This document shows positions 3,124 through 26,327 of a stretch of DNA of 61,574 bases, in pieces; within the stretch, counting starts at the first letter, position 1; the number at the start of each line of letters is the position of its first letter. The position numbers and the translations under genes are program-made. The stretch is from Thermoanaerobaculia bacterium (GTDB lineage: Bacteria > Acidobacteriota > Thermoanaerobaculia > UBA5066 > Gp7-AA6). The stretch covers positions 1-61,574 of the forward strand of contig JAWOLE010000065.1 of NCBI GenBank assembly GCA_033853815.1, read 5' to 3'. Below the pieces are notes generated by a model, which was not told the origin of the DNA, did not search any database, and saw nothing but the letters and a program-made list of their open reading frames with translations.

Positions 3124-4112
3124 CGAGCGCCTGCCAGCAACGCCTCTTCGGCCTCGCGGGCGAGGTCGGGACCGAAAGGAAAGAGCTTGCCGAGGTTGCC
3201 CTCGCGCGCGATCGGCGCGAGGTCGCGGCCGGATTCGTCGATCCACCGGGCCGCGGCGTGCAGGAGCGCCGCCCGGTGCTCGTCCCCCGACGCGGCCACC
3301 GCCTTCTCTTCCAGGCGCCCCGCGGCGGCGGCGTTTGCCGCGGGCTCGTGCAACCCGACGGGGCGCGGCGGGACGGTCGCGAGGCCGAGCCGAGCGCAGC
3401 AATCGCGAAGCCGCTCCTGCGCCAGGCTCGCCTGGGCGAAGTCGCCGTGGTGGACGAGATCGAAGAGGCCGTCCGACGACTCGGGATGGGAGGCGCTCGC
3501 GGCTTCCAGGGCCAGACGTCTGGCCTGACCGTCCTCGGCGAGCGGCACCGACGCCAGGAACCGGGCGCCGGACGCGGCCGCGCGGCCGACGGCGTCCTCC
3601 ACGACCTCCGGCGTCGCGGTCCACCCGGGCACGAAGGGCAGAAGCCAGCCCGCCGGGATGCCGGCCGCGAGCGCGGCCGCGAGCCCCTCGCCCGGAGGCT
3701 CGAGGCCGGGAAACCAGACGAACAGGGCCACGACGGCCGATCCGGGCTCCCGCGGGAGACCCGCGGGCTCGGGCTCGAGCAGGTAGACGGCCCGCCCCGA
3801 GGCCCGCGCTCCCTCGGCGGCCGCGCGGTAGGAACCGCGAACCTCCTCGGCGTCGGAGCACGGGCCGACCAGGACGGGGCCGGCGGGTCCGCGCAGAAGT
3901 GCGGTCCGCCAGACGCCCGCCTCGTGCGGCCCGGCGAGCATGGTGCCCTCGGACGCCCGGGAGAAGAAGCGGCGCTCGACGGGATCGAAGCGGAAACGCG
4001 GGGCGCCCACCTCGCCGGCGTAGGGAAAGGCCCTCGCCGCGATCCGACGGGAGGCGATCTCGAATTCCCCCGGGCGGACGATCGCGTTGCCGGAGGACTC
4101 GAAGACGATCAT
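3120..4112 (-). CDS. Hypothetical protein, translationally coupled between ribE and hemW
   Basis: Track ORF 3120..4148. The internal ATG at 4112 (MIVFESS...) overlaps the ribE stop (ATGA) and its own stop overlaps the hemW ATG. No motif recognised. Confidence 0.55.
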   Translation of the reverse strand: MIVFESSGNAIVRPGEFEIASRRIAARAFPYAGEVGAPRFRFDPVERRFFSRASEGTMLAGPHEAGVWRTALLRGPAGPVLVGPCSDAEEVRGSYRAAAEGARASGRAVYLLEPEPAGLPREPGSAVVALFVWFPGLEPPGEGLAAALAAGIPAGWLLPFVPGWTATPEVVEDAVGRAAASGARFLASVPLAEDGQARRLALEAASASHPESSDGLFDLVHHGDFAQASLAQERLRDCCARLGLATVPPRPVGLHEPAANAAAAGRLEEKAVAASGDEHRAALLHAAARWIDESGRDLAPIAREGNLGKLFPFGPDLAREAEEALLAGAR

Positions 4113-4720
4113 CGGGTCCTGCCCGCCCGGCCGACCCGCCGGCGCCAACCCGACGCTCCGTAGCGCGCGAAGACGTCCGCCTCGAAGTTGAAGACCGTCC
4201 CGGGCTTCGCACCGCCGAGCGTCGTCGCGCGCAGCGTCTTCGGGATCAAGGCCACTTCGAAGTCCCCGCGGCGCCTGCTCGCCACCGTGAGGCTCACGCC
4301 GTCCAGAGCGACCGAGCCCTTCTCGACGACGAAGCGTGAGAGGCCGCGCGGAAGGGAGAACCGGTAGGTCCGGGAATTCCCGGCGGGGCGGGCCGCGAGA
4401 AGCCGGCAGACTCCATCCACGTGGCCGAGAACGAAGTGGCCGGAAAGGCGATCTCCCCAGGCCAGCGCTCGTTCGAGGTTCACGGCGCCCCCGGAGCGCA
4501 GCCCGCCGAGCGTCGAGCGTCGGAGGGTCTCGCCGGAGAGGTCCGCCGCGAACCGGCGCCCGCTCCGAATGGCCGTCAGGCAGACTCCCGACACGCTGAT
4601 GCTCTCCCCATCGCGGAATCGCCCGTAGCCCGCCGGCGGTTCGACCGTGAGCCGGGCTCCCCCACGGACCTTTTCGAGGGAGATCACCTTCCCCTTGCCG
4701 GTCACGATGCCGCTAAACAC
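4109..4720 (-). CDS. ribE: Riboflavin synthase alpha chain
   Basis: MFSGIVTGKGKV N-terminus and duplicated lumazine-binding halves (GESISVSGVCLT / GSVALDGVSLT). GTG start at 4720. Confidence 0.9.
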   Translation of the reverse strand: MFSGIVTGKGKVISLEKVRGGARLTVEPPAGYGRFRDGESISVSGVCLTAIRSGRRFAADLSGETLRRSTLGGLRSGGAVNLERALAWGDRLSGHFVLGHVDGVCRLLAARPAGNSRTYRFSLPRGLSRFVVEKGSVALDGVSLTVASRRRGDFEVALIPKTLRATTLGGAKPGTVFNFEADVFARYGASGWRRRVGRAGRTR

Positions 4721-4771: not shown

Positions 4772-5883
4772 TACTGGCGCACGCTGCCTGTCACGAAGAT
4801 ATCTTCGCCCAGCCGTTCGACCTCGATGTCGTTCAAGCGGGGCGTCGAGCCGAGCGGGAAGCCCCCGCCGCCCACGCCCGCGGGAGCGACGGCGCCTCCG
4901 AGGATGCGGGGCGCGAAGAAAACGGCGACGCGGTCCACCCGCCGGGCGCGAAAGAACTCCCAGAGCGTTGCCGATCCTCCCTCCACGAGAAGGCTCGTGA
5001 TCCCCTGTCGCGCGAGCCTTGTGAGAAGGGCCGGGATGCTCACATGGCCTGAACCTCGGCCGGGCAGGCTCCAGACGAGAACGCCCCGCGAGGCCAGAAG
5101 CCGCACCGAAGGATGGCTCGGAGCGCGAGCGGTTACGACGAGAACGTTCTCCCGACGGCGAAAGAGGCGCGCGCCGGGGTCAACCCTGAGGCGGCCGTCG
5201 AGGAGGATCCGCCAGTGGGGAGTCGCGGCCCTGCCCAGGCGGCGCGTCAGGCGCGGGTCGTCCGCGAGCGCAGTGCCGGACCCGACGAGGACGGCGTCGT
5301 ATTCCTCCCTCAGCAAAAGGGCCCGCTTCCGCGCCCGGGGGCCCGTGATCCAGCGGCTCTCGCCCCCGGCCGACGCGGTCTTGCCGTCGAGCGTGGCCGC
5401 CCACTTGGCGAGCACGAACGGCCGGCGCTCCCGGACCCAGATGCGGAACTTCTCGTTCTGGCGCTCGGCCCGGCGCCGCCGCGCCGAGTCCGCGAGGACG
5501 ACCTGGACGCCGGCGCGCCGCAGGGCGGAAAGCCCGCGCCCCGAAACGAGAGGATTGGGATCGCGCGCGGCGACGACGACGCGGCCGACGCCGGAAGCGA
5601 GGATCGCGTCGGCGCAGGGGGGAGTTCTGCCGAAGTGCGCGCAGGGCTCGAGCGTCACGTACAGATCGGCCCCTCGCGAGCGCTTTCCCGCCCGGGAAAG
5701 CGCGACCACTTCGGCGTGCGGCCCGCCCGCGCGGCGGTGAAACCCCGTTCCTATGGCCCGGCCTCCCCGCGTCACGACGGCGCCGACCATCGGGTTGGGC
5801 GAGACCGAATAGCGCCCCCTTTCGGCCAGCTCGAAGGCCAGGTCCATCCACCTCATATCGATGGGAGCCGGTCGTCGCATCAT
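4771..5883 (-). CDS. ribD: Bifunctional riboflavin biosynthesis deaminase/reductase
   Basis: Zinc deaminase motifs HAEVVAL and PCAHFGRTPPC followed by a reductase half. The start could instead be the ATG at 5856. Confidence 0.9.
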   Translation of the reverse strand: MMRRPAPIDMRWMDLAFELAERGRYSVSPNPMVGAVVTRGGRAIGTGFHRRAGGPHAEVVALSRAGKRSRGADLYVTLEPCAHFGRTPPCADAILASGVGRVVVAARDPNPLVSGRGLSALRRAGVQVVLADSARRRRAERQNEKFRIWVRERRPFVLAKWAATLDGKTASAGGESRWITGPRARKRALLLREEYDAVLVGSGTALADDPRLTRRLGRAATPHWRILLDGRLRVDPGARLFRRRENVLVVTARAPSHPSVRLLASRGVLVWSLPGRGSGHVSIPALLTRLARQGITSLLVEGGSATLWEFFRARRVDRVAVFFAPRILGGAVAPAGVGGGGFPLGSTPRLNDIEVERLGEDIFVTGSVRQ

Positions 5884-5896
5884 CCTCTGGGGTCCA

Positions 5897-6853
5897 TCAG
5901 TTGTCGCCGAGGAGGGCCCTGGCGTACTGGGAGGGATCGAACGGAATCAGGTCGTCCAACCCCTCTCCCACGCCGACGAAGAGGACCGGCAGCTTCAATT
6001 CCCGGTAGATGGCCAGCACGACGCCCCCCTTGGCGCTGCCGTCGAGCTTGGTCAGGACCACGCCCGTCGCGCCGGCGGCCTCGACGAAGCGCCGCGCCTG
6101 GGCGAGGCCGTTCGTCCCCGTCGTCGCGTCGAGCACGAGCAGGGTCTGGTGCGGCGCGCCGGAGACCTCGCGGCCGGCGATTCGCCGCATCTTGGCGAGC
6201 TCCTCCATCAGATTCTTTTTCGTATGGAGGCGGCCGGCCGTGTCCACGAGGAGCGTCTGTGTGCCCCGGGCCCTGGCTGCCGCGATGGCGTCGAAGAGGA
6301 CCGCCGAGGGATCGGCGCCCTCCCGATGCTGGACGATCGGGACCTTCAGTCGATCGGCCCAGACCGCCAGTTGCTCGATCGCTCCGGCGCGGAACGTGTC
6401 GGCGGCGGCGAGCAGGACCGAGCGACCCTCCTCGAGACGGCGCGCGGCGAGCTTGGCCGCCGTCGTGGTCTTGCCCGAACCGTTGACGCCGACCAGGAAG
6501 ACGACCTCGAGCGGAACGTCGGGAGCCGCGGGGGGCCGGGGCGCCGAGGCGATCAGGCGCTCGATCTCTTCCGTCAAGAGCCGGCGCAGGTCCTCGAGAT
6601 CCGTCCGCTCGCCCGCGCCCCGGCGCGCCCGCACGGCTTCGGCCAGCGCTCCGGCGGTCTCCGCGCCGACGTCCGCCTCGATCAGGGCCTCTTCCAGGCT
6701 CTCGAGCACGGACTCGTCGAACCCGAGTCCCTTCTTCACCGCCGAACCGAGCTTTTCCAGGATCTCGGTATGGGTCATGAACAACCCGCGCCGGACCCTG
6801 GCAAAGAAACCGGAGCGCGGCGTCTTCTCGGGTCCGGGCGTCGGATCGCTCAT
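5897..6853 (-). CDS. ftsY: Signal recognition particle receptor FtsY
   Basis: GVNGSGKTTTAAKLA P-loop, DTAGRLH, TKLDGSAKGG. Confidence 0.93.
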   Translation of the reverse strand: MSDPTPGPEKTPRSGFFARVRRGLFMTHTEILEKLGSAVKKGLGFDESVLESLEEALIEADVGAETAGALAEAVRARRGAGERTDLEDLRRLLTEEIERLIASAPRPPAAPDVPLEVVFLVGVNGSGKTTTAAKLAARRLEEGRSVLLAAADTFRAGAIEQLAVWADRLKVPIVQHREGADPSAVLFDAIAAARARGTQTLLVDTAGRLHTKKNLMEELAKMRRIAGREVSGAPHQTLLVLDATTGTNGLAQARRFVEAAGATGVVLTKLDGSAKGGVVLAIYRELKLPVLFVGVGEGLDDLIPFDPSQYARALLGDN

Positions 6854-6917
6854 CGGGACGCATTATTCCCGATCGAGAGCCGTTTCAAAGAGGAAGCCGG
6901 CAGGATCCGGGCGTGCG

Positions 6918-7727
6918 TCAGCTCGACGGATTGGTTTCCAGGAGCAGGCGCGCCTTCGCGCCGGCTTCCCCTGAGGGATCGAGCTCCAGCGTGCGCTCGA
7001 GATAACGGCGGCCGAGCGCCGTCTTCTTCATCGTCACCAGCGCCAGACCCAGGCGCAGATTCGCCTCGGGACTCTTCGGCTGCAGCCGCACCGCCTCCAG
7101 GTAGTCCTCGGCGGCCGCCTCGAGATCGCCCCGCGACTCCCGGGCGACCCCGCGGCCGAGGACCGCGTCGAAGGACCCCGGATCCCGGGCGAGGGCCGTG
7201 GAGAACTCCGCCTCGGCTCCCGCGTAGTCCCCCATCCTCTGGCGCATCCGACCGCGGTTGATGGCCACGTCGACCTTGTCCTCCAGAGCGGAGGATCGGT
7301 CGGCCACGCGGAAGTCTTCCTCGGCGTCTCCGTAGCGTCCCGCCTGCGTGCGCGCCATCCCCCGGTGAATCCGGTAGAGACTCCTTTCCGGATCGAGCTT
7401 CACGGCGCGATCGAACTCGTCGAGCGACTCATGGAGCCTGCCCTGGGCGAGCAGCGCCACCCCGAGCCCGTCGTGCACTTCCGGGTTCTTGGGATCCGAC
7501 CGCAGGACGTCCCGGTAGGCCACCTCCGCGTCGTGCGGGCGCCCGTCGCGCAGCAGGACGGCCGCCATGCGCTCGTTCAACAGGACCTCGGCCGAGGTAT
7601 GTCGCTGCGCGCGGGAGGCACAGCTCACGATTGGCGTCAATGCGACGAGTGCCGCGAGGGCGAATAAGAGAACGACCGGGGGAGCGGGTGACTGCGGGAC
7701 TGGGGGAAAAAGCCGGAGGCTCTCGAT
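6918..7727 (-). CDS. TPR-repeat lipoprotein (start codon unresolved)
   Basis: Lipoprotein signal VVLLFALAALVALTPIVSC followed by several TPR-like units (e.g. AEVAYRDVLRSDPKNPEVHDGLGVALLAQGRLHESLDEFDRAVKLDP). No ATG/GTG/TTG lies between the HD-GYP stop (7775) and the signal peptide; 7727 is an in-frame ATC. The track start at 8066 would overlap the HD-GYP gene by about 290 nt. Confidence 0.65.
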   Translation of the reverse strand: MESLRLFPPVPQSPAPPVVLLFALAALVALTPIVSCASRAQRHTSAEVLLNERMAAVLLRDGRPHDAEVAYRDVLRSDPKNPEVHDGLGVALLAQGRLHESLDEFDRAVKLDPERSLYRIHRGMARTQAGRYGDAEEDFRVADRSSALEDKVDVAINRGRMRQRMGDYAGAEAEFSTALARDPGSFDAVLGRGVARESRGDLEAAAEDYLEAVRLQPKSPEANLRLGLALVTMKKTALGRRYLERTLELDPSGEAGAKARLLLETNPSS

Positions 7728-9542: not shown

Positions 9543-9642
9543 GTAAAACGTCAAACGTTAACCGTCAAACGTGGCGAGGTGAACCCCGAGCAACGGTGTC
9601 TGCCCCGTTCCAACGTTTCACGTTTTACGTTTTACGTTTTAC
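9543..9642. repeat. Inverted heptamer arrays GTNAAAC x4 (9543-9570) and GTTTYAC x4 (9615-9642)
   Basis: gtaaaac gtcaaac gttaacc gtcaaac ... gtttcac gttttac gttttac gttttac. The aroB stop TAA (9639-9641) is inside the last unit. Confidence 0.95.
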
Positions 9643-10724
9643 GGCTCCTGGAGTCGGACGCGCGCGGCGGCTTCGAGCCACTCGGCGATCGGGATCGCCT
9701 CGATGACTCGCGCCCGCCCGATCGCCTCGAGCAGGACCCCCGCCGTCCCGCGCGCATTCCCCTTCTTGTCGCGCGAAAGGTAGCCCTCGAGAGCCGCCGG
9801 GTCGCGCACCGGTTCCGGGAAGGGGCCGAGCGAGTTCAGAACATGTCGGACGCGCGACGCGTCCCGTTCGGGCAGGCGGGCACGCCTCTGCGAGAGATCG
9901 AGCGCCGCCGCGATTCCCCACGCCACGGCCTCCCCGTGGCGCAGGGCCCGATACCCGCCGGCGGCTTCGAAAGCGTGGCCGAGCGTGTGGCCGAAATTCA
10001 GGACTCGCCTGTTCCCCTCTTCTCGGAGGTCTGCGGTCACGACCGCCGCCTTGACGGCGATCGCGCCCGCCAGCAGGGAGAGCAGCGGCCCCTCTTCCCG
10101 GCGCAGCAGGCGATCGATCGCCTCCTCGGCCTCTCGCGCGAGCGACGCGTCGGCGATCCAGGCTCCCTTGAAGGCCTCGACCAGGCCCGCGCGGAAATCG
10201 CGGTCGGGCAGCGTCGCGGCCGCCCCGGGATCCACGAGTATGGCGCGCGGGGGATGAAAGGCGCCGAGCAGGTTCTTTCCGGCCGGGTGATCGACGCCCG
10301 TTTTGCCGCCGATCGCCGCGTCCGCCATGGCCCCGGTCGTCGTCGGGACGGCGTTCCAGGGGATGCCGCGCAGCAGGATCGCGGCCGCGAATCCCGCCAC
10401 GTCGGACACGACGCCTCCTCCGACGGCGACGAACGCGTCGTCGCGGCGGACTCCCGCCGCAATCGCCGCGTCCGCGATCTTCGAGACGGTCTCCAGGGTC
10501 TTCGCCTCCTCCCGATCGTCGATCTCCAGGCTCGTCAGCACCCGGCCGGCGAGGACGTCGCGGATCCGCTCGGCCGGAACGCGGGCGCCCCGCGAGGAGA
10601 CGAGCAGGAAGCGTCCCGAGGGAGACTCCAGATACCGTCCGGCTTCGGCCAGGAGGCCGGTTCCGATCCAGGCGACGCTGCCGGAAGAGCCGGAGCCGAT
10701 CGCGATCCGGCGCGGCTCCTTCAC
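9639..10724 (-). CDS. aroB: 3-dehydroquinate synthase
   Basis: VAVGGGVVSDVAGFAAA, GGKTGVDHPAGKNLLGAFHPP, NFGHTLGHAFE. The GTG start overlaps the aspS stop (GTGA). Confidence 0.9.
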   Translation of the reverse strand: MKEPRRIAIGSGSSGSVAWIGTGLLAEAGRYLESPSGRFLLVSSRGARVPAERIRDVLAGRVLTSLEIDDREEAKTLETVSKIADAAIAAGVRRDDAFVAVGGGVVSDVAGFAAAILLRGIPWNAVPTTTGAMADAAIGGKTGVDHPAGKNLLGAFHPPRAILVDPGAAATLPDRDFRAGLVEAFKGAWIADASLAREAEEAIDRLLRREEGPLLSLLAGAIAVKAAVVTADLREEGNRRVLNFGHTLGHAFEAAGGYRALRHGEAVAWGIAAALDLSQRRARLPERDASRVRHVLNSLGPFPEPVRDPAALEGYLSRDKKGNARGTAGVLLEAIGRARVIEAIPIAEWLEAAARVRLQEP

Positions 10725-12490
10725 GGACGCGGAGTCTGCGGCAGCTCGATCCCGAGCTCCCGGAGCTGGTCGGCGGCGACCTCCGACGGCGCCTTCATCA
10801 TGAGGTCCAGGCCCGAGGTGGTCTTGGGGAACGCGATGACGTCCCGGATCGAAGAGGCGCCGGCCGCGATCGCGCAGATGCGGTCGAGCCCGAGCGCGAT
10901 GCCTCCGTGCGGCGGCGCGCCGTAACGCAGGGCGTCGAGAAGGAACCCGAACCGCTGCCTTCCCTCCTCCGGCGATATGCCGAGCAGGCGGAAGACCCGC
11001 TCCTGCACGTCGGCACGGTGGATCCGGATGGAGCCGGAGCCAAGCTCCCAGCCGTTGACGACCACGTCGTAGGCGTACGCCCGGACGCCGCCCGGATCGG
11101 CTTCGAGACGCTCCAGGTCCTCCTCCCGCGGCGCGGTGAACGGGTGGTTCATCGGAAACCAGCAGCGCGCCTCCTCATCGAAGCCGAAGAGGGGAAACTC
11201 GGTGACCCAGCAGAAGACGTATTTCGACTCGTCGACGAGCTTCAACTCCCGCGCCGCCGCGGCGCGCAGGGCGGACAGGGCCGCGAAAACGGCCTTGGCT
11301 TTGTCGGCGACCATCACGAGGAGGTCGCCCGCGGCAAGCCCGCCGGCCTGCGCAAGGCGCTCGAGTACGCCGGGCGCGAGATGCCTGGCGGCGGGAGAGG
11401 CGAGCGTCTCTTCCTTCTTGATCCAGACGAGGCCGGCCGCGCCGTGCTCGCGGGCAAGGGCGGTCCATTCCTCGAGCCGCTTGCGCGAGACGGCCGCCCC
11501 GCCGGGCAGCCGGATTCCGCGCACCGCGCCGCCCGCCGCGAGCGCCTTCTCGAAGGGGGAGAACCCGCTGCCGGCCGAGACCGCGGAGAGATCCATCAGC
11601 GGCAGGTCGTAGCGCAGGTCGGGCCGGTCGGTGCCGTAGCGCTCCATCGCGTCGCGGTAGGTCAGCCTCCGGAAGGGCCGCTCGCACCCGATACCCGCCG
11701 CGGCGAACGCCTCGACGAGCAGGGCCTCGACGGCGTCGAAAACGTCCTCCTCGGTCGGGAAGGAGATCTCGATATCGATCTGCGTGAACTCGAACTGGCG
11801 GTCGGCGCGCAGGTCTTCGTCCCGGAAGCAGCGGGCGATCTGGACGTACTTCTCCAGGCCCGAGATCATCAGGAGCTGTTTGAAGAGCTGCGGCGACTGC
11901 GGCAGCGCGTAGAACCGCCCCTTGTGCGCGCGCGAAGGCACCAGGAAGTCCCGCGCCCCCTCGGGGGTCGAGCGCGTCAGCATCGGGGTCTCGATCTCCA
12001 GGAACCCCCGCTCGTGGAGGACCCGGCGCACGCGGAAGGTCATCTCGTCGCGCAGCATCAGGTTCTTCTGCATGGCGGGGCGGCGAAGATCGAGGTAGCG
12101 GTATTCCAGGCGCAGTTCCTCGGTCGCGTTGGTGCGGTCCTCGACGACGAAGGGGGGCGTTTCGGACCGCGAGAGAAACTCCAGGCGCGAGGCCAGGACC
12201 TCGACGTCCCCGGTCGCCATGTCGGACCGGCGCTGCGCCGGCGCTCGCGAGGCGACCTCCCCCTCGATCTCGACGACGTCCTCGCTTCGGGCTTCCGCCG
12301 CCGCGGCCACCGCCTCCTGCGGGCAGCGGCCCTTGTCGAAGACCACCTGGACCATGCCGCTCCTGTCGCGGACCGTCAGGAAGATCAACTCCCCCAGGTC
12401 GCGCCGGCGGCCGACCCAGCCCTGGAGGCGCACACGCCGGCCGGTGTCGGCCGCCCGCAGCGTTCCGGCCGGATCCCGGGGCAGGCTCAC
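10721..12490 (-). CDS. aspS: Aspartyl-tRNA synthetase
   Basis: Class II aaRS blocks PQLFKQLLM, RCFRDEDLRADRQFEFTQID, PPHGGIALGLDR. The GTG start overlaps the hisS stop. Confidence 0.95.
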   Translation of the reverse strand: MSLPRDPAGTLRAADTGRRVRLQGWVGRRRDLGELIFLTVRDRSGMVQVVFDKGRCPQEAVAAAAEARSEDVVEIEGEVASRAPAQRRSDMATGDVEVLASRLEFLSRSETPPFVVEDRTNATEELRLEYRYLDLRRPAMQKNLMLRDEMTFRVRRVLHERGFLEIETPMLTRSTPEGARDFLVPSRAHKGRFYALPQSPQLFKQLLMISGLEKYVQIARCFRDEDLRADRQFEFTQIDIEISFPTEEDVFDAVEALLVEAFAAAGIGCERPFRRLTYRDAMERYGTDRPDLRYDLPLMDLSAVSAGSGFSPFEKALAAGGAVRGIRLPGGAAVSRKRLEEWTALAREHGAAGLVWIKKEETLASPAARHLAPGVLERLAQAGGLAAGDLLVMVADKAKAVFAALSALRAAAARELKLVDESKYVFCWVTEFPLFGFDEEARCWFPMNHPFTAPREEDLERLEADPGGVRAYAYDVVVNGWELGSGSIRIHRADVQERVFRLLGISPEEGRQRFGFLLDALRYGAPPHGGIALGLDRICAIAAGASSIRDVIAFPKTTSGLDLMMKAPSEVAADQLRELGIELPQTPRP

Positions 12491-24185: not shown

Positions 24186-24818
24186 ATGCGCAGGAGAATC
24201 TCAGGTCTCATCGTCACAATCGCCGCTTTGGCAGTCGCCACGGCACTCTTCGCCCAGAACGCAGACCAGAACACCGGCGGCCCCACGAAGAACACCTTGA
24301 TGCTCAAACTCATGGAGCCTGCGGAAGGGACCACCATCACGGGCGATACCGTCCGGGTCACCGTGGACTACAACCACCAGATCTTCGCGGCGGGACAGGG
24401 CACGAGGTTCGGAGAAGCCAACTTCCCGCAGCCTCGCTTCGACGTGTACCTGGACAACTCGCTCAAGGCCACGCTGAAGGGAACCGAATCCAACACGGCG
24501 ACGATCGAAAACGTTCCACCGGGGAATCATAAGATCGCAGTCGTCGCGTTGAACGTCAGCGGCGAGGTGATCGACCGCAAGGAAGTCGGCATCACGACGA
24601 CGGCCGCGACGACGGTCATGGCCGAAAAGAACAAGACCGTCGAAACGGCTCCGGCGCCCGCTCCACCGGCCCCCGCGCCGGCGCCCTCTTACCAGCCGGC
24701 CCCGCCGGCACCGACCGAGACGACCCTTCCCACGACCGCGACGATCTTTCCGCGGCTCGCTCTGCTGGGTCTGGCCCTGGTCGCCGGCGGCTTGCTTCTC
24801 GGCCGCGAGGCCCGCTGA
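24186..24818 (+). CDS. Secreted Ig-like surface protein with LPTTAT sorting signal (paralog A)
   Basis: AAGGAAGGAGAG RBS then ATG 24186. Signal peptide, one beta domain, Pro/Ala-rich stalk. C-terminus LPTTAT-IFPRLALLGLALVAGGLLLG-REAR. Confidence 0.8.
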   Translation: MRRRISGLIVTIAALAVATALFAQNADQNTGGPTKNTLMLKLMEPAEGTTITGDTVRVTVDYNHQIFAAGQGTRFGEANFPQPRFDVYLDNSLKATLKGTESNTATIENVPPGNHKIAVVALNVSGEVIDRKEVGITTTAATTVMAEKNKTVETAPAPAPPAPAPAPSYQPAPPAPTETTLPTTATIFPRLALLGLALVAGGLLLGREAR

Positions 24819-24836
24819 GGCCGAACTAGAACTCCT

Positions 24837-24872
24837 GCGCCCGGCGTCCCGCTCCTGAGCGGGGCCGGGCGC
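24837..24872 (+). terminator. Strong GC hairpin after paralog A (no U-tract)
   Basis: GCGCCCGGC-gt-CCCGCT-cctg-AGCGGG-g-GCCGGGCGC, 19 nt after the stop codon. Confidence 0.45.
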
Positions 24873-24905
24873 GGGATTGCCCTACACAAGAACTCCAACA
24901 GCAGG

Positions 24906-25457
24906 ATGTTCAGTCACAGGATCATCCCTGCCCTGGCATCCGTCGGCCTCGGGTGCGGAATTCTCTTCACCACGCCGCTGGCGCGCGAGATCTATTCCGG
25001 CATGTCGAGACCCCGCACACTGTCCTTCTCCTCGCCGCCTTCCACTCCGCCTCCACCTCGGGGCGAACTCGTCGCCCGTCTGACGGTCTCCCGTCTCGCG
25101 CTCGATTCCGCCGTCCTCGAAGGACTCGAGGCGGGGACGCTCGCGAAGGGAGCGGGCCACGTGCCCGGCACGGCCCTTCCGGGGGAGGAGAAGGCCGCGC
25201 GCCCGTCTCTGATCGCCTTCGCACGCGGCCGCACGGCCTCGGAGATCGCCGGACTGCGGCTGGGCGACCACGTGCGTCTGACGAGCGCTCGCGGGCCGCG
25301 GCGCTACCGGGTCGTCGAACGGCGGATCGAGGAAGCGCGGCATCTGCGCCTCGATGAGGCTTCAGGCGGCCGCGTGACGCTCATCGCGCCCTTCCCGCCC
25401 GATTTTCCCGGCCCGGCTCCGATGCGCCTCGCCGTCGTGCTGAAAGGACGGGACTGA
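24906..25457 (+). CDS. Sortase-fold protein lacking the catalytic His and Cys (pseudo-sortase)
   Basis: N-terminal anchor and GAGHVPGTALPGE. The His block reads SLIAFARGR, the Cys block VTLIAPFPPDF, and the Arg block APMRLAVV is retained. Alignment to canonical IAGH / TLxTC / R blocks was done by eye. Confidence 0.72.
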   Translation: MFSHRIIPALASVGLGCGILFTTPLAREIYSGMSRPRTLSFSSPPSTPPPPRGELVARLTVSRLALDSAVLEGLEAGTLAKGAGHVPGTALPGEEKAARPSLIAFARGRTASEIAGLRLGDHVRLTSARGPRRYRVVERRIEEARHLRLDEASGGRVTLIAPFPPDFPGPAPMRLAVVLKGRD

Positions 25458-25588
25458 GCGTCCTCTCGCGCGTCCACATCTCGCACGCTCTGCGCCTCTT
25501 GAGCGATTCTCCCGGCTGAATTGATGCATTCGGGTCATGGCCGACGGGGCCGCGGCGTGCATACTGGATCCGTCGAAAGGGAGGAGTT

Positions 25589-26215
25589 ATGAGGAGAAAA
25601 TCTCTGGGAATTGTCATCGCGGCCTCCTTACTGGCGACCGGCGTGGCCCTTGGCCAGCGCGCCGACCAGAATACGGGAGGGCCGACCAAGAACACGCTCG
25701 GGATGAAGGTTGTCGAGCCCGTCGAGGGCGCCATGATCACGGGGGACACGATCCGTGTAGCGGTGGGCTACAACACGGAGAATTTCGCGGTTGGACAGGG
25801 CACGCGCTTCGGCGAGCCCAACTACCCGCAGCCCCGTTTTGACGTCTACGTGGACAACGTGCTCAAGACGACCCTGAAGGGCACCGAATCCAACGTGGCC
25901 ACCATTTCGGGAGTCTCCCCCGGCAGTCACAAGATCGTCGTGGTCGCCTTGAACGTCAGCGGCGAGGTGATCGACCGCAAGGAGATCGAGGTCCAAACCG
26001 TGCCCGTGGTCGCCGAGAAGGCCATCGAGCCGGCGAAGCCGGAACCGGTGGCGGTAGCGCCCGCTCCGCCCCCTCCGGCGCCTGTCGCGGCGGAACCGCC
26101 TCCGATCGCCGAGGAAAAGGCCCTTCCGAAGACGGCTTCTCCGTATGCCGCGCTCGCGCTGGCCGGCGCCGCTCTCCTGACGACCGGTCTGCTTCTTGCC
26201 CGCAAGGTGCGGTAG
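25589..26215 (+). CDS. Secreted Ig-like surface protein with LPKTAS sorting signal (paralog B)
   Basis: GGGAGGAG RBS. Paralog of 24186..24818 (ADQNTGGPTKNTL, PQPRFDVYxDN, LKGTESN, ALNVSGEVIDRKE). C-terminus LPKTAS-PYAALALAGAALLTTGLLLA-RKVR. Confidence 0.8.
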   Translation: MRRKSLGIVIAASLLATGVALGQRADQNTGGPTKNTLGMKVVEPVEGAMITGDTIRVAVGYNTENFAVGQGTRFGEPNYPQPRFDVYVDNVLKTTLKGTESNVATISGVSPGSHKIVVVALNVSGEVIDRKEIEVQTVPVVAEKAIEPAKPEPVAVAPAPPPPAPVAAEPPPIAEEKALPKTASPYAALALAGAALLTTGLLLARKVR

Positions 26216-26241
26216 AGCCCGGCGCAAGCGCCTCCCCCTTT

Positions 26242-26278
26242 GCGCCCGGTCCGCGACAGGCCGGGCGCGTTTCTGTTT
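26242..26278 (+). terminator. Intrinsic-terminator-like hairpin with T-rich tail after paralog B
   Basis: GCGCCCGG (26242-26249) / CCGGGCGC (26261-26268) followed by GTTTCTGTTT. Confidence 0.6.
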
Positions 26279-26327
26279 GAGCCTGCCTGGTAGCGAGGAT
26301 TCGCCGCGGCCGGGCGACTGCTCTTCG

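Follow-up and report, generated by a model that had tools for sequence, protein, structure and literature searches.

A catalytically degenerate sortase homolog encoded between putative LPxTA-tailed substrates in a member of the Thermoanaerobaculia (Acidobacteriota)

Introduction

Sortases are textbook cysteine transpeptidases. The closest described systems to the one treated here are the class D sortases (Bacillus SrtD/YhcS-type; NF033746, NF058671) and, among diderm bacteria, the class GN or 'marine' system of Proteobacteria (TIGR03784, TIGR03788 and PdsO; Shewanella SO2194-SO2196). Here we describe a locus on contig JAWOLE010000065.1 of a Thermoanaerobaculia bacterium (assembly GCA_033853815.1), of which a stretch of 61,574 nucleotides (nt), hereafter the window, was analysed. 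Its open reading frame (ORF) 24906-25457 encodes a sortase homolog that lacks the catalytic Cys and His, hereafter the dead sortase, and lies between two genes, sub1 and sub2, for proteins with sortase-type sorting signals.

Pseudoenzymes are a common phenomenon, and envelope and membrane examples include the degenerate LytM factors EnvC and NlpD, which activate amidases, and the iRhoms and derlins among the rhomboids. For sortases, a 2021 analysis states that every known member has an active cysteine as part of a catalytic triad (PMC8416519). The role of the class GN system, and of sortases in Gram-negative bacteria, is stated in the literature as unknown. Full-text literature searches returned no natural inactive sortase, only engineered mutants, and nothing on sortases in Thermoanaerobaculia; a first-pass annotation of this DNA, made from the letters alone, had likewise known of no described substrate-enzyme-substrate cassette whose enzyme lacks both nucleophile and general base. 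The family reported here appears to be the first natural 'pseudo-sortase' family to be recorded.

Homology and predicted structure

ORF 24906-25457 encodes a member of the sortase superfamily (PF04203, MEROPS C60) by descent and by fold. The protein scores 27.6 bits (E 2.6e-6) on the Pfam Sortase model, barely above the gathering threshold of 26.6, and falls far short of every NCBIfam sortase class cut-off, scoring 37.8 against 165 on the class D model NF033746, 36.3 against 140 on the class D model NF058671 and 37.7 bits against 158.25 on the class GN model TIGR03784. A hidden Markov model (HMM) built on intact relatives matches it at 1.4e-31. A large protein collection yielded 86 homologs, mostly of ~183 amino acids (aa) with a more distant group of ~226 aa, several of which are named as Thermoanaerobaculia or Acidobacteriota. 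A family profile made from 56 of the 86 was compared with PDB sortases and matched at E 6.5e-14.

This profile alignment pairs the family's 'sviAiaRg' with 'SVITGHRG' and its 'vtLiapyP' with 'LTLVTCTP', both from a class C sortase; Ala106 thus occupies the His position and Pro162 the Cys position. An alignment with S. aureus SrtA made with MAFFT was dropped, its catalytic columns being off by a few residues, and was replaced by the profile-to-PDB alignment. The AlphaFold2 (AF2) model has a mean predicted local distance difference test score (pLDDT) of 81.8, with values exceeding 90 at most positions between aa 55 and 140, and the best 50 Foldseek matches of the model in the PDB are all sortases (best E 1.9e-11). 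The N-terminus has a hydrophobic helix at aa 7-21 that follows the conserved Arg5; after this hydrophobic segment comes GAGHVPGTALPGE, ahead of the three catalytic blocks. The first-pass annotation had called the ORF a sortase homolog with Ala at the His position, Pro at the Cys position and the Arg kept. The Pfam match, the profile alignment and the predicted structure agree with the homology, the profile alignment agrees with the two substitutions, and it places no Cys-His pair in the active site. Of the residues that define a sortase enzyme, the protein has the Arg (Arg174) and is without the Cys and the His.

Distribution, monophyly and selection

The loss is not confined to the window. 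A pattern-based scan of the GTDB representative genomes, one for each species, produced 129 hits, of which 80 were kept as loci, and these were classed by their catalytic columns. Loci L005-L032 are dead, with both His and Cys gone, and represent 28 species-level genomes, all of them Thermoanaerobaculia or unclassified Acidobacteriota; loci L033-L084 are intact, with 'HRD' and 'TLxTCYPF' present, and have the 'GxGHVPGTALPG' and 'GPAPxR' blocks in common with the dead group. Neither His nor Cys was found in the catalytic blocks of any of the 86 homologs or of the 28 genome copies. An exhaustive profile search of 1.84 billion cluster representatives gave the same partition, the best 16 clusters (50% identity) being dead and all of the next 133 having intact His, Cys and Arg (133/133). 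In a neighbour-joining tree the dead proteins form one clade (29/29 sequences), and the clade was recovered in 27 of 30 bootstraps after eight columns of the active-site neighbourhood had been removed, which avoids circularity.

Constraint was compared site by site between 43 dead and 185 intact sequences. The His column holds A, P, S or T in the 43 dead members and His in 185/185 intact ones, and the Cys column holds P, A, S or I in the dead members and Cys in 185/185 intact ones, whereas Arg174 is invariant in both sets (43/43 and 185/185). Relaxed positions in the dead clade, namely His106, Cys162 and their neighbours G99, N100, F111, L114, T161 and F165, cluster around the active site; still invariant are G73, L79, G84-H85, T89, P92, R107, Y134, P164, G169, A171-P172 and Arg174, which take in the GxGH..T..P and G.AP motifs. 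In comparisons with three close relatives (amino-acid identity 81-93%; synonymous rate, dS, 0.16-0.37) the dead sortase has a ratio of nonsynonymous to synonymous substitution rates (dN/dS) of 0.19-0.37; the corresponding values are ~0.2-0.43 for the substrates and 0.10-0.14 for radA. This pattern is the signature of a single ancient loss of catalysis followed by long upkeep of the scaffold. By the operational definition of an enzyme homolog with missing catalytic residues that is under purifying selection across species, the protein is a pseudoenzyme.

Some side observations concern the gene models. In the 226-aa subclade a C-terminal extension of ~45 aa overlaps the convergent radA by ~170 nt (L004, 9087-9767 versus radA 9599-11017). 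At L086 (828-1703) the gene caller skipped the dead sortase and called an antisense ORF of 291 aa in its place. Homologs are publicly annotated as 'sortase', 'sortase A' or 'class D sortase'.

Substrate genes and sorting signals

In 27 of the 28 genomes, the gene immediately before the dead sortase encodes a protein of ~210-240 aa with a C-terminal tripartite signal (LPxT[AG][ST] or MPRTAS). The signal varies by clade, being LP[HQKT]TAS in the subclade of the window, MPRTAS in a second subclade and LP[KA]TG[ST] in the 226-aa subclade. At the MPRTAS loci (L013, L015, L017, L018 and L019, with upstream genes ending near 5921-5928) Met replaces the normally invariant Leu. Among the substrate homologs in the matches listed, [LI]PxT[AG][ST] occurs in 120/120 and LPxTAS in 118/120; Pro and Thr are invariant and x alone varies freely. 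The transmembrane (TM) segment that follows the signal is well conserved, with a fixed length and invariant Gly/Leu positions, and the pattern S..P......GL..L of this tail occurs also in the substrates of intact sortases. The tail peptide PAPTETTLPTTATIFPR serves as an example, and AF2 places a helix over aa 188-209 of the substrate tail.

Both substrate proteins of the window consist of a signal peptide, a mature N-terminal segment, one beta-sandwich, a Pro/Ala stalk and the sorting signal, which has the LPXTG-type layout of motif, hydrophobic segment and basic tail at the extreme C-terminus. Sub2 passes the TIGR01167 LPXTG_anchor model (16.7 against a cut-off of 15.9); sub1 is sub-threshold on the sorting-signal HMMs (PF00746, 13.8 against 20), yet has the identical tripartite layout. 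They are paralogs, 60% identical overall and 67% across the first 140 aa, and their tails read LPTTAT with REAR and LPKTAS with RKVR, as the first-pass annotation had it. The AF2 model of the substrate is of moderate confidence (pLDDT 63.6), and its Foldseek neighbours are only generic FN3/CARDB-like sandwiches. The single match of the substrate sequence in the PDB was rejected as a spurious low-complexity hit; neither the PDB sequence search nor the Foldseek structure search gave a functional assignment for the ectodomain, and profile and structure searches found no vWFA match in sub1 or sub2. At the mature N-termini of sub1 (24255-24299) and sub2 (25655-25699), the first ~15 residues past the predicted signal-peptide cleavage site (QNADQNTGGPTKNTL) are nearly invariant across the family and disordered in the AF2 model; this segment may be a recognition or acceptor segment.

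Sub1 is 74-81% identical to the single upstream gene of the relatives and sub2 64-65%. Sub2 is shared with the near relatives L086 and L087, is truncated in L085 and is absent farther out. The conserved unit is therefore a substrate gene followed by the dead sortase gene, and sub2 is a recent duplicate and local elaboration. The first-pass annotation had proposed a cassette of substrate, enzyme and substrate: this holds in the window and its near relatives, and elsewhere gives way to a single upstream substrate. In L085 (4727-4987) the second substrate consists of its last 86 aa (stalk and LPKTAS tail), abutting the end of the dead sortase gene, a shortening due either to a true deletion or to collapse of the two paralogs in the assembly at their shared SGEVIDRKE stretch. 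Frameshifted substrate genes occur in two long-read metagenome-assembled genomes (L048, 5054-5755; L009, ~5750-5920). Additional LPKTA- and LPGSA-tailed proteins are encoded a few kb upstream of the cassette at L021 (2070-2477) and L029 (1071-2510), so these organisms have more than one sortase-type substrate.

Intact sortases in Acidobacteriota

The same substrate family stands upstream of an intact sortase at L048, where GQNADPN... and SGEVIDRKEI are shared and the LPETAS tail was recovered in the +1 frame past an apparent assembly frameshift. In the scan, an LPxTA-S protein is encoded immediately upstream of most intact Acidobacteriota sortases, and the intact relatives score best on the NCBIfam class D models, mostly under the cut-offs (108-136 bits). 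The cassette is therefore descended from a working, dedicated class-D-like sortase-substrate pair. The class D affinity that had been read from the LPxTA[ST] signal agrees with these scores, and the accompanying statement that sortase systems are rare in such hosts does not hold, as intact sortase-substrate pairs are widespread in Acidobacteriota.

The first-pass annotation had also suggested looking for an intact sortase elsewhere in the genome. HMM searches of the six-frame translation found no other sortase in the 61.5-kb window, and dead and intact sortases occur together in at least three related genomes. Assembly DASWIB01 has both (L014 dead, L033 intact), as does JBHENW01 (L032 dead, L037 intact), and a 4.46-Mb contig carries dead P0018 at 1.35 Mb and intact P0464 at 3.26 Mb, ~1.9 Mb apart. 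P0018 falls in the subclade of the window protein, to which it is 61% identical; P0464 has the blocks 'NCVITAHRDS' and 'LTLITCYPF...APERL'. The pattern scan missed P0464 on account of a GSELP variant and kept only 80 of its 129 hits, and is unusable for counting how often dead and intact sortases co-occur. A second intact sortase, P0466, was not assignable to a genome with a dead sortase, as the metagenome sample spans several bins. Since related genomes hold an intact sortase, a dead enzyme does not imply that the tails go unprocessed.

No LPxTG protein adjoins the intact Thermoanaerobaculia paralogs (Table 1). They are followed by an L,D-transpeptidase gene (SHGCIRL motif) and/or an M23 peptidase gene, a context that is suggestive of a 'housekeeping' sortase operon linked to peptidoglycan in a diderm. 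As a separate observation, Acidobacteriota also encode fusions of 530-554 aa in which an intact class-D-like sortase carries a C-terminal VWA domain, each with an LPKTA-S protein directly upstream; the L071 fusion scores 209 bits on TIGR03436 acidobact_VWFA and 148 bits on the SrtD model.

Organisation of the locus

The coordinates are collected in Table 1. Codons, motifs and the three ORFs of the first-pass annotation all match the raw sequence. Terminator-like sites on the + strand were not found between the three genes, and sub1, the dead sortase gene and sub2 probably form one operon with a single terminator after sub2. The Shine-Dalgarno sequence of sub1 is strong (AAGGAGAG), as is that of sub2; at the start of the dead sortase gene none is obvious. 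The conserved gene order in the relatives is purC, substrate, dead sortase, convergent radA, mlaD, an ABC ATPase gene, mlaE, alr and dnaB. The host is a diderm, as the Mla operon and the Acidobacteriota relatives indicate and as had been proposed from the window.

Table 1. Features of the three-gene unit in the window and of intact sortase loci in other genomes
Feature	Locus	Coordinates	Strand	Basis or remarks
sub1, ancestral substrate gene, 210 aa	window	24186..24818	+	read directly; ortholog of the relatives' single upstream gene
sub1, N-terminal parts	window			signal peptide aa 1-23; mature N-terminus QNADQNTGGPTKNTL; FN3/CARDB-like beta-sandwich ~aa 40-139
sub1, C-terminal parts	window			Pro/Ala stalk; LPTTAT; TM helix; REAR tail
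Sorting motif LPTTAT of sub1	window	24726..24743	+	read directly (LPTTA = 24726-24740)
Sortase-like pseudoenzyme, 183 aa	window	24906..25457	+	Pfam, profile-to-PDB, AF2/Foldseek
N-terminal TM anchor of pseudoenzyme	window	~aa 7-24 = 24924-24977	+
Eight-stranded sortase beta-barrel of pseudoenzyme	window	~aa 53-183 = 25062-25454	+
Ala106, codon GCA, at the catalytic His position	window	25221..25223	+	profile alignment to PDB sortases; block SLIAFARGR
Pro162, codon CCC, at the catalytic Cys position	window	25389..25391	+	profile alignment to PDB sortases; block VTLIAPFPPDF
Arg174, codon CGC, active-site Arg kept, GPAPxR block	window	25425..25427	+	block APMRLAVV
sub2, lineage-specific substrate duplicate, 208 aa	window	25589..26215	+	LPKTAS 26123-26140 (LPKTA 26123-26137), then TM, RKVR
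Intrinsic terminator-like hairpin, 11-bp stem and T-run, after sub2	window	26241..26279 (also given as 26241-26269)	+	closes the three-gene unit
Intact Thermoanaerobaculia sortase locus	L033	6674-7693
Intact Thermoanaerobaculia sortase locus	L034	3874-5004
Intact Thermoanaerobaculia sortase locus	L037	4593-6356
Intact Thermoanaerobaculia sortase locus	L040	6330-8209
Intact Thermoanaerobaculia sortase locus	L041	6440-8204
Intact Thermoanaerobaculia sortase locus	L088	6826-7572
Intact Thermoanaerobaculia sortase locus	L089	5748-6452
Sortase-VWA fusion	L057	5701-7299
Sortase-VWA fusion	L060	5671-7296
Sortase-VWA fusion	L068	5683-7293
Sortase-VWA fusion	L071	5632-7296
Sortase-VWA fusions	L078-L080	~5640-7296

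Proposed function and alternatives

From the observed homology and fold, the loss of catalytic residues, the monophyly and purifying selection of the clade, the conserved pairing with a signal-bearing neighbour and the intact paralog in related genomes, we propose that the dead sortase binds the sorting signal of its neighbour without catalysis, as an adaptor or gatekeeper, and that cleavage takes place in trans through an intact orphan sortase. We give this proposal about an even chance of being correct. In an ancestor of the Thermoanaerobaculia clade the enzyme lost Cys, His and a ring of nearby active-site residues, whereas the barrel, the Arg and the strands bearing the canonical IAGH and TLxTC blocks were retained; selection has since preserved the pseudoenzyme in an operon with its single FN3-like substrate. 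Arg174, beta4 and beta7 would correspond to the elements that touch the LPxT peptide in solved SrtA complexes such as that of S. aureus SrtA with LPAT. The product is a membrane-anchored sortase-fold protein that faces the periplasm and is no longer able to carry out transpeptidation, and it would still bind the LPxT[AG][ST] signal of its neighbour or neighbours without cleaving it. Cleavage and attachment would be left to the orphan intact sortase encoded beside M23 and L,D-transpeptidase genes, and the attachment target would presumably be peptidoglycan in the periplasm. That the protein is the first natural sortase pseudoenzyme to act as a receptor of LPxTA signals without cleavage, and to decide between inner-membrane tethering and hand-over to the orphan peptidoglycan-associated sortase, is a tentative extension to which we give somewhat less than an even chance.

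Several points weigh against the adaptor proposal. Signal binding is, like trans processing and the attachment target, a step that we infer. The intact sortase in the window's own organism is likewise deduced from relatives, and in several long-read, high-quality relatives an intact paralog was not reported by the pattern scan, which also missed P0464. The weak ribosome-binding site of the dead sortase beside the strong ones of the substrates speaks against a 1:1 structural partner. Finally, at L012 (~3650-4441), L092 (5674-6555) and L093 (2642-3523) which form one lineage, an intact dead-sortase gene directly follows purC with no substrate gene, and tblastn found no substrate remnant in the 327-nt gap, so the dead sortase is not strictly dependent on a neighbouring substrate and can persist without one.

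An alternative is retention without processing, in which the dead sortase would hold the uncleaved LPxTA signal, possibly with the TM helix, in a stable inner-membrane complex and the FN3-like domain would be displayed on its Pro/Ala stalk in the periplasm. The strongly conserved signal and TM segment of fixed length with its invariant Gly/Leu positions, the predicted co-transcription of dead sortase and substrate, and the high-quality relatives for which the pattern scan reported no intact paralog would all suit such a complex. In the window's subclade, however, an intact class-D-like orphan sortase lies on the same contig as a dead one, and a motif in which Pro and Thr are invariant while x is free has the look of a cleaved sortase motif. 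The tail pattern is no novelty of the dead system, as it is found also in the substrates of intact sortases, and the conserved tail TM was on this ground dropped as evidence for a permanent complex; a stoichiometric complex also fits poorly with the unequal ribosome-binding sites. We consider retention without processing unlikely, though it is the alternative that survives best.

A second alternative is that the protein is still an enzyme and works by a non-canonical mechanism through His85, Arg107, Arg139, Asp166, Arg174 or Thr158. Several polar residues are indeed invariant or nearly so, and conservation of Arg139 is restricted to the dead clade. His85, Thr89, Arg107, Thr158 and Arg174, however, are equally conserved in intact sortases and so are not new inventions, and the ring of former active-site invariants is relaxed, as expected after the loss of catalysis. 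As both the Cys and the His columns vary, no replacement nucleophile is fixed there, and continued catalysis is very improbable. The last alternative is that the gene is a pseudogene in decay or an error of sequencing or assembly, for which nothing but the loss of the two catalytic residues would speak. It is effectively refuted by a reading frame that is intact in the window and in 86 homologs from independent assemblies, by a clade that spans 28 genomes at species level and, at 50% identity, 16 clusters, and by dN/dS of 0.19-0.37, to which the high-confidence barrel of the AF2 model (pLDDT >90 over most of the domain) adds; the clade-wide survey thereby upholds the first-pass view of an in-frame pseudoenzyme.

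If the adaptor proposal is adopted, the locus would be a natural case in which the sortase fold recognises its signal but no longer catalyses. It would point to a two-component arrangement of a dead adaptor and an active orphan sortase encoded next to L,D-transpeptidase and M23 genes and, if true, would add a regulatory layer to protein-to-peptidoglycan anchoring in a diderm phylum where sortase function is unknown. The weight of these considerations is limited in that the function is inferred and the hosts are uncultured. The survey also brings to light a large body of uncurated, intact pairs of sortase and substrate in diderm Acidobacteriota, and the public sortase labels on the dead proteins are functionally misleading.

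Comparison with known systems

The locus resembles the examples of degenerate EnvC and NlpD and of the iRhoms and derlins in that a fold is kept and selected after its catalytic residues have been lost, and in that those proteins act on or with the clients of active paralogs; the folds are unrelated, and for the window protein both the partner and the activity are conjectural. The class GN system is alike in its diderm setting and in a single neighbouring target with an LP[QK]TA-type signal. Its sortase is catalytically intact, whereas the window protein is without His and Cys, and its vWFA target, OmpA-family partner and two-component regulator are all absent from the window locus, where the neighbours are purC and radA and the substrates are FN3-like.

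Closer are the class D sortases, whose substrates carry LPxTA[ST/TN] and whose models score higher than those of any other sortase class on the dead protein as well as on its intact relatives. With them the locus shares the LPxTA[ST] type of signal, a small membrane-anchored single-domain protein and a gene placed beside one or two dedicated substrates. The window protein differs from them by the loss of His and Cys and by scores under the class D cut-offs, and its host is a diderm acidobacterium instead of a Firmicute. The intact Acidobacteriota relatives, too, are mostly under these cut-offs and so form an uncurated sister group. No description of the intact Acidobacteriota pairs (L033-L084, for example L048 and L052) was found in the literature searched, and it is these that are most directly comparable: they are linked to the dead sortase by common descent, by the GxGHVPGTALPG and GPAPxR blocks and by an LPxTA-S protein encoded directly upstream, the substrate family of L048 being also that of the window, and they differ from it in having kept HRD and TLxTCYPF throughout (185/185).

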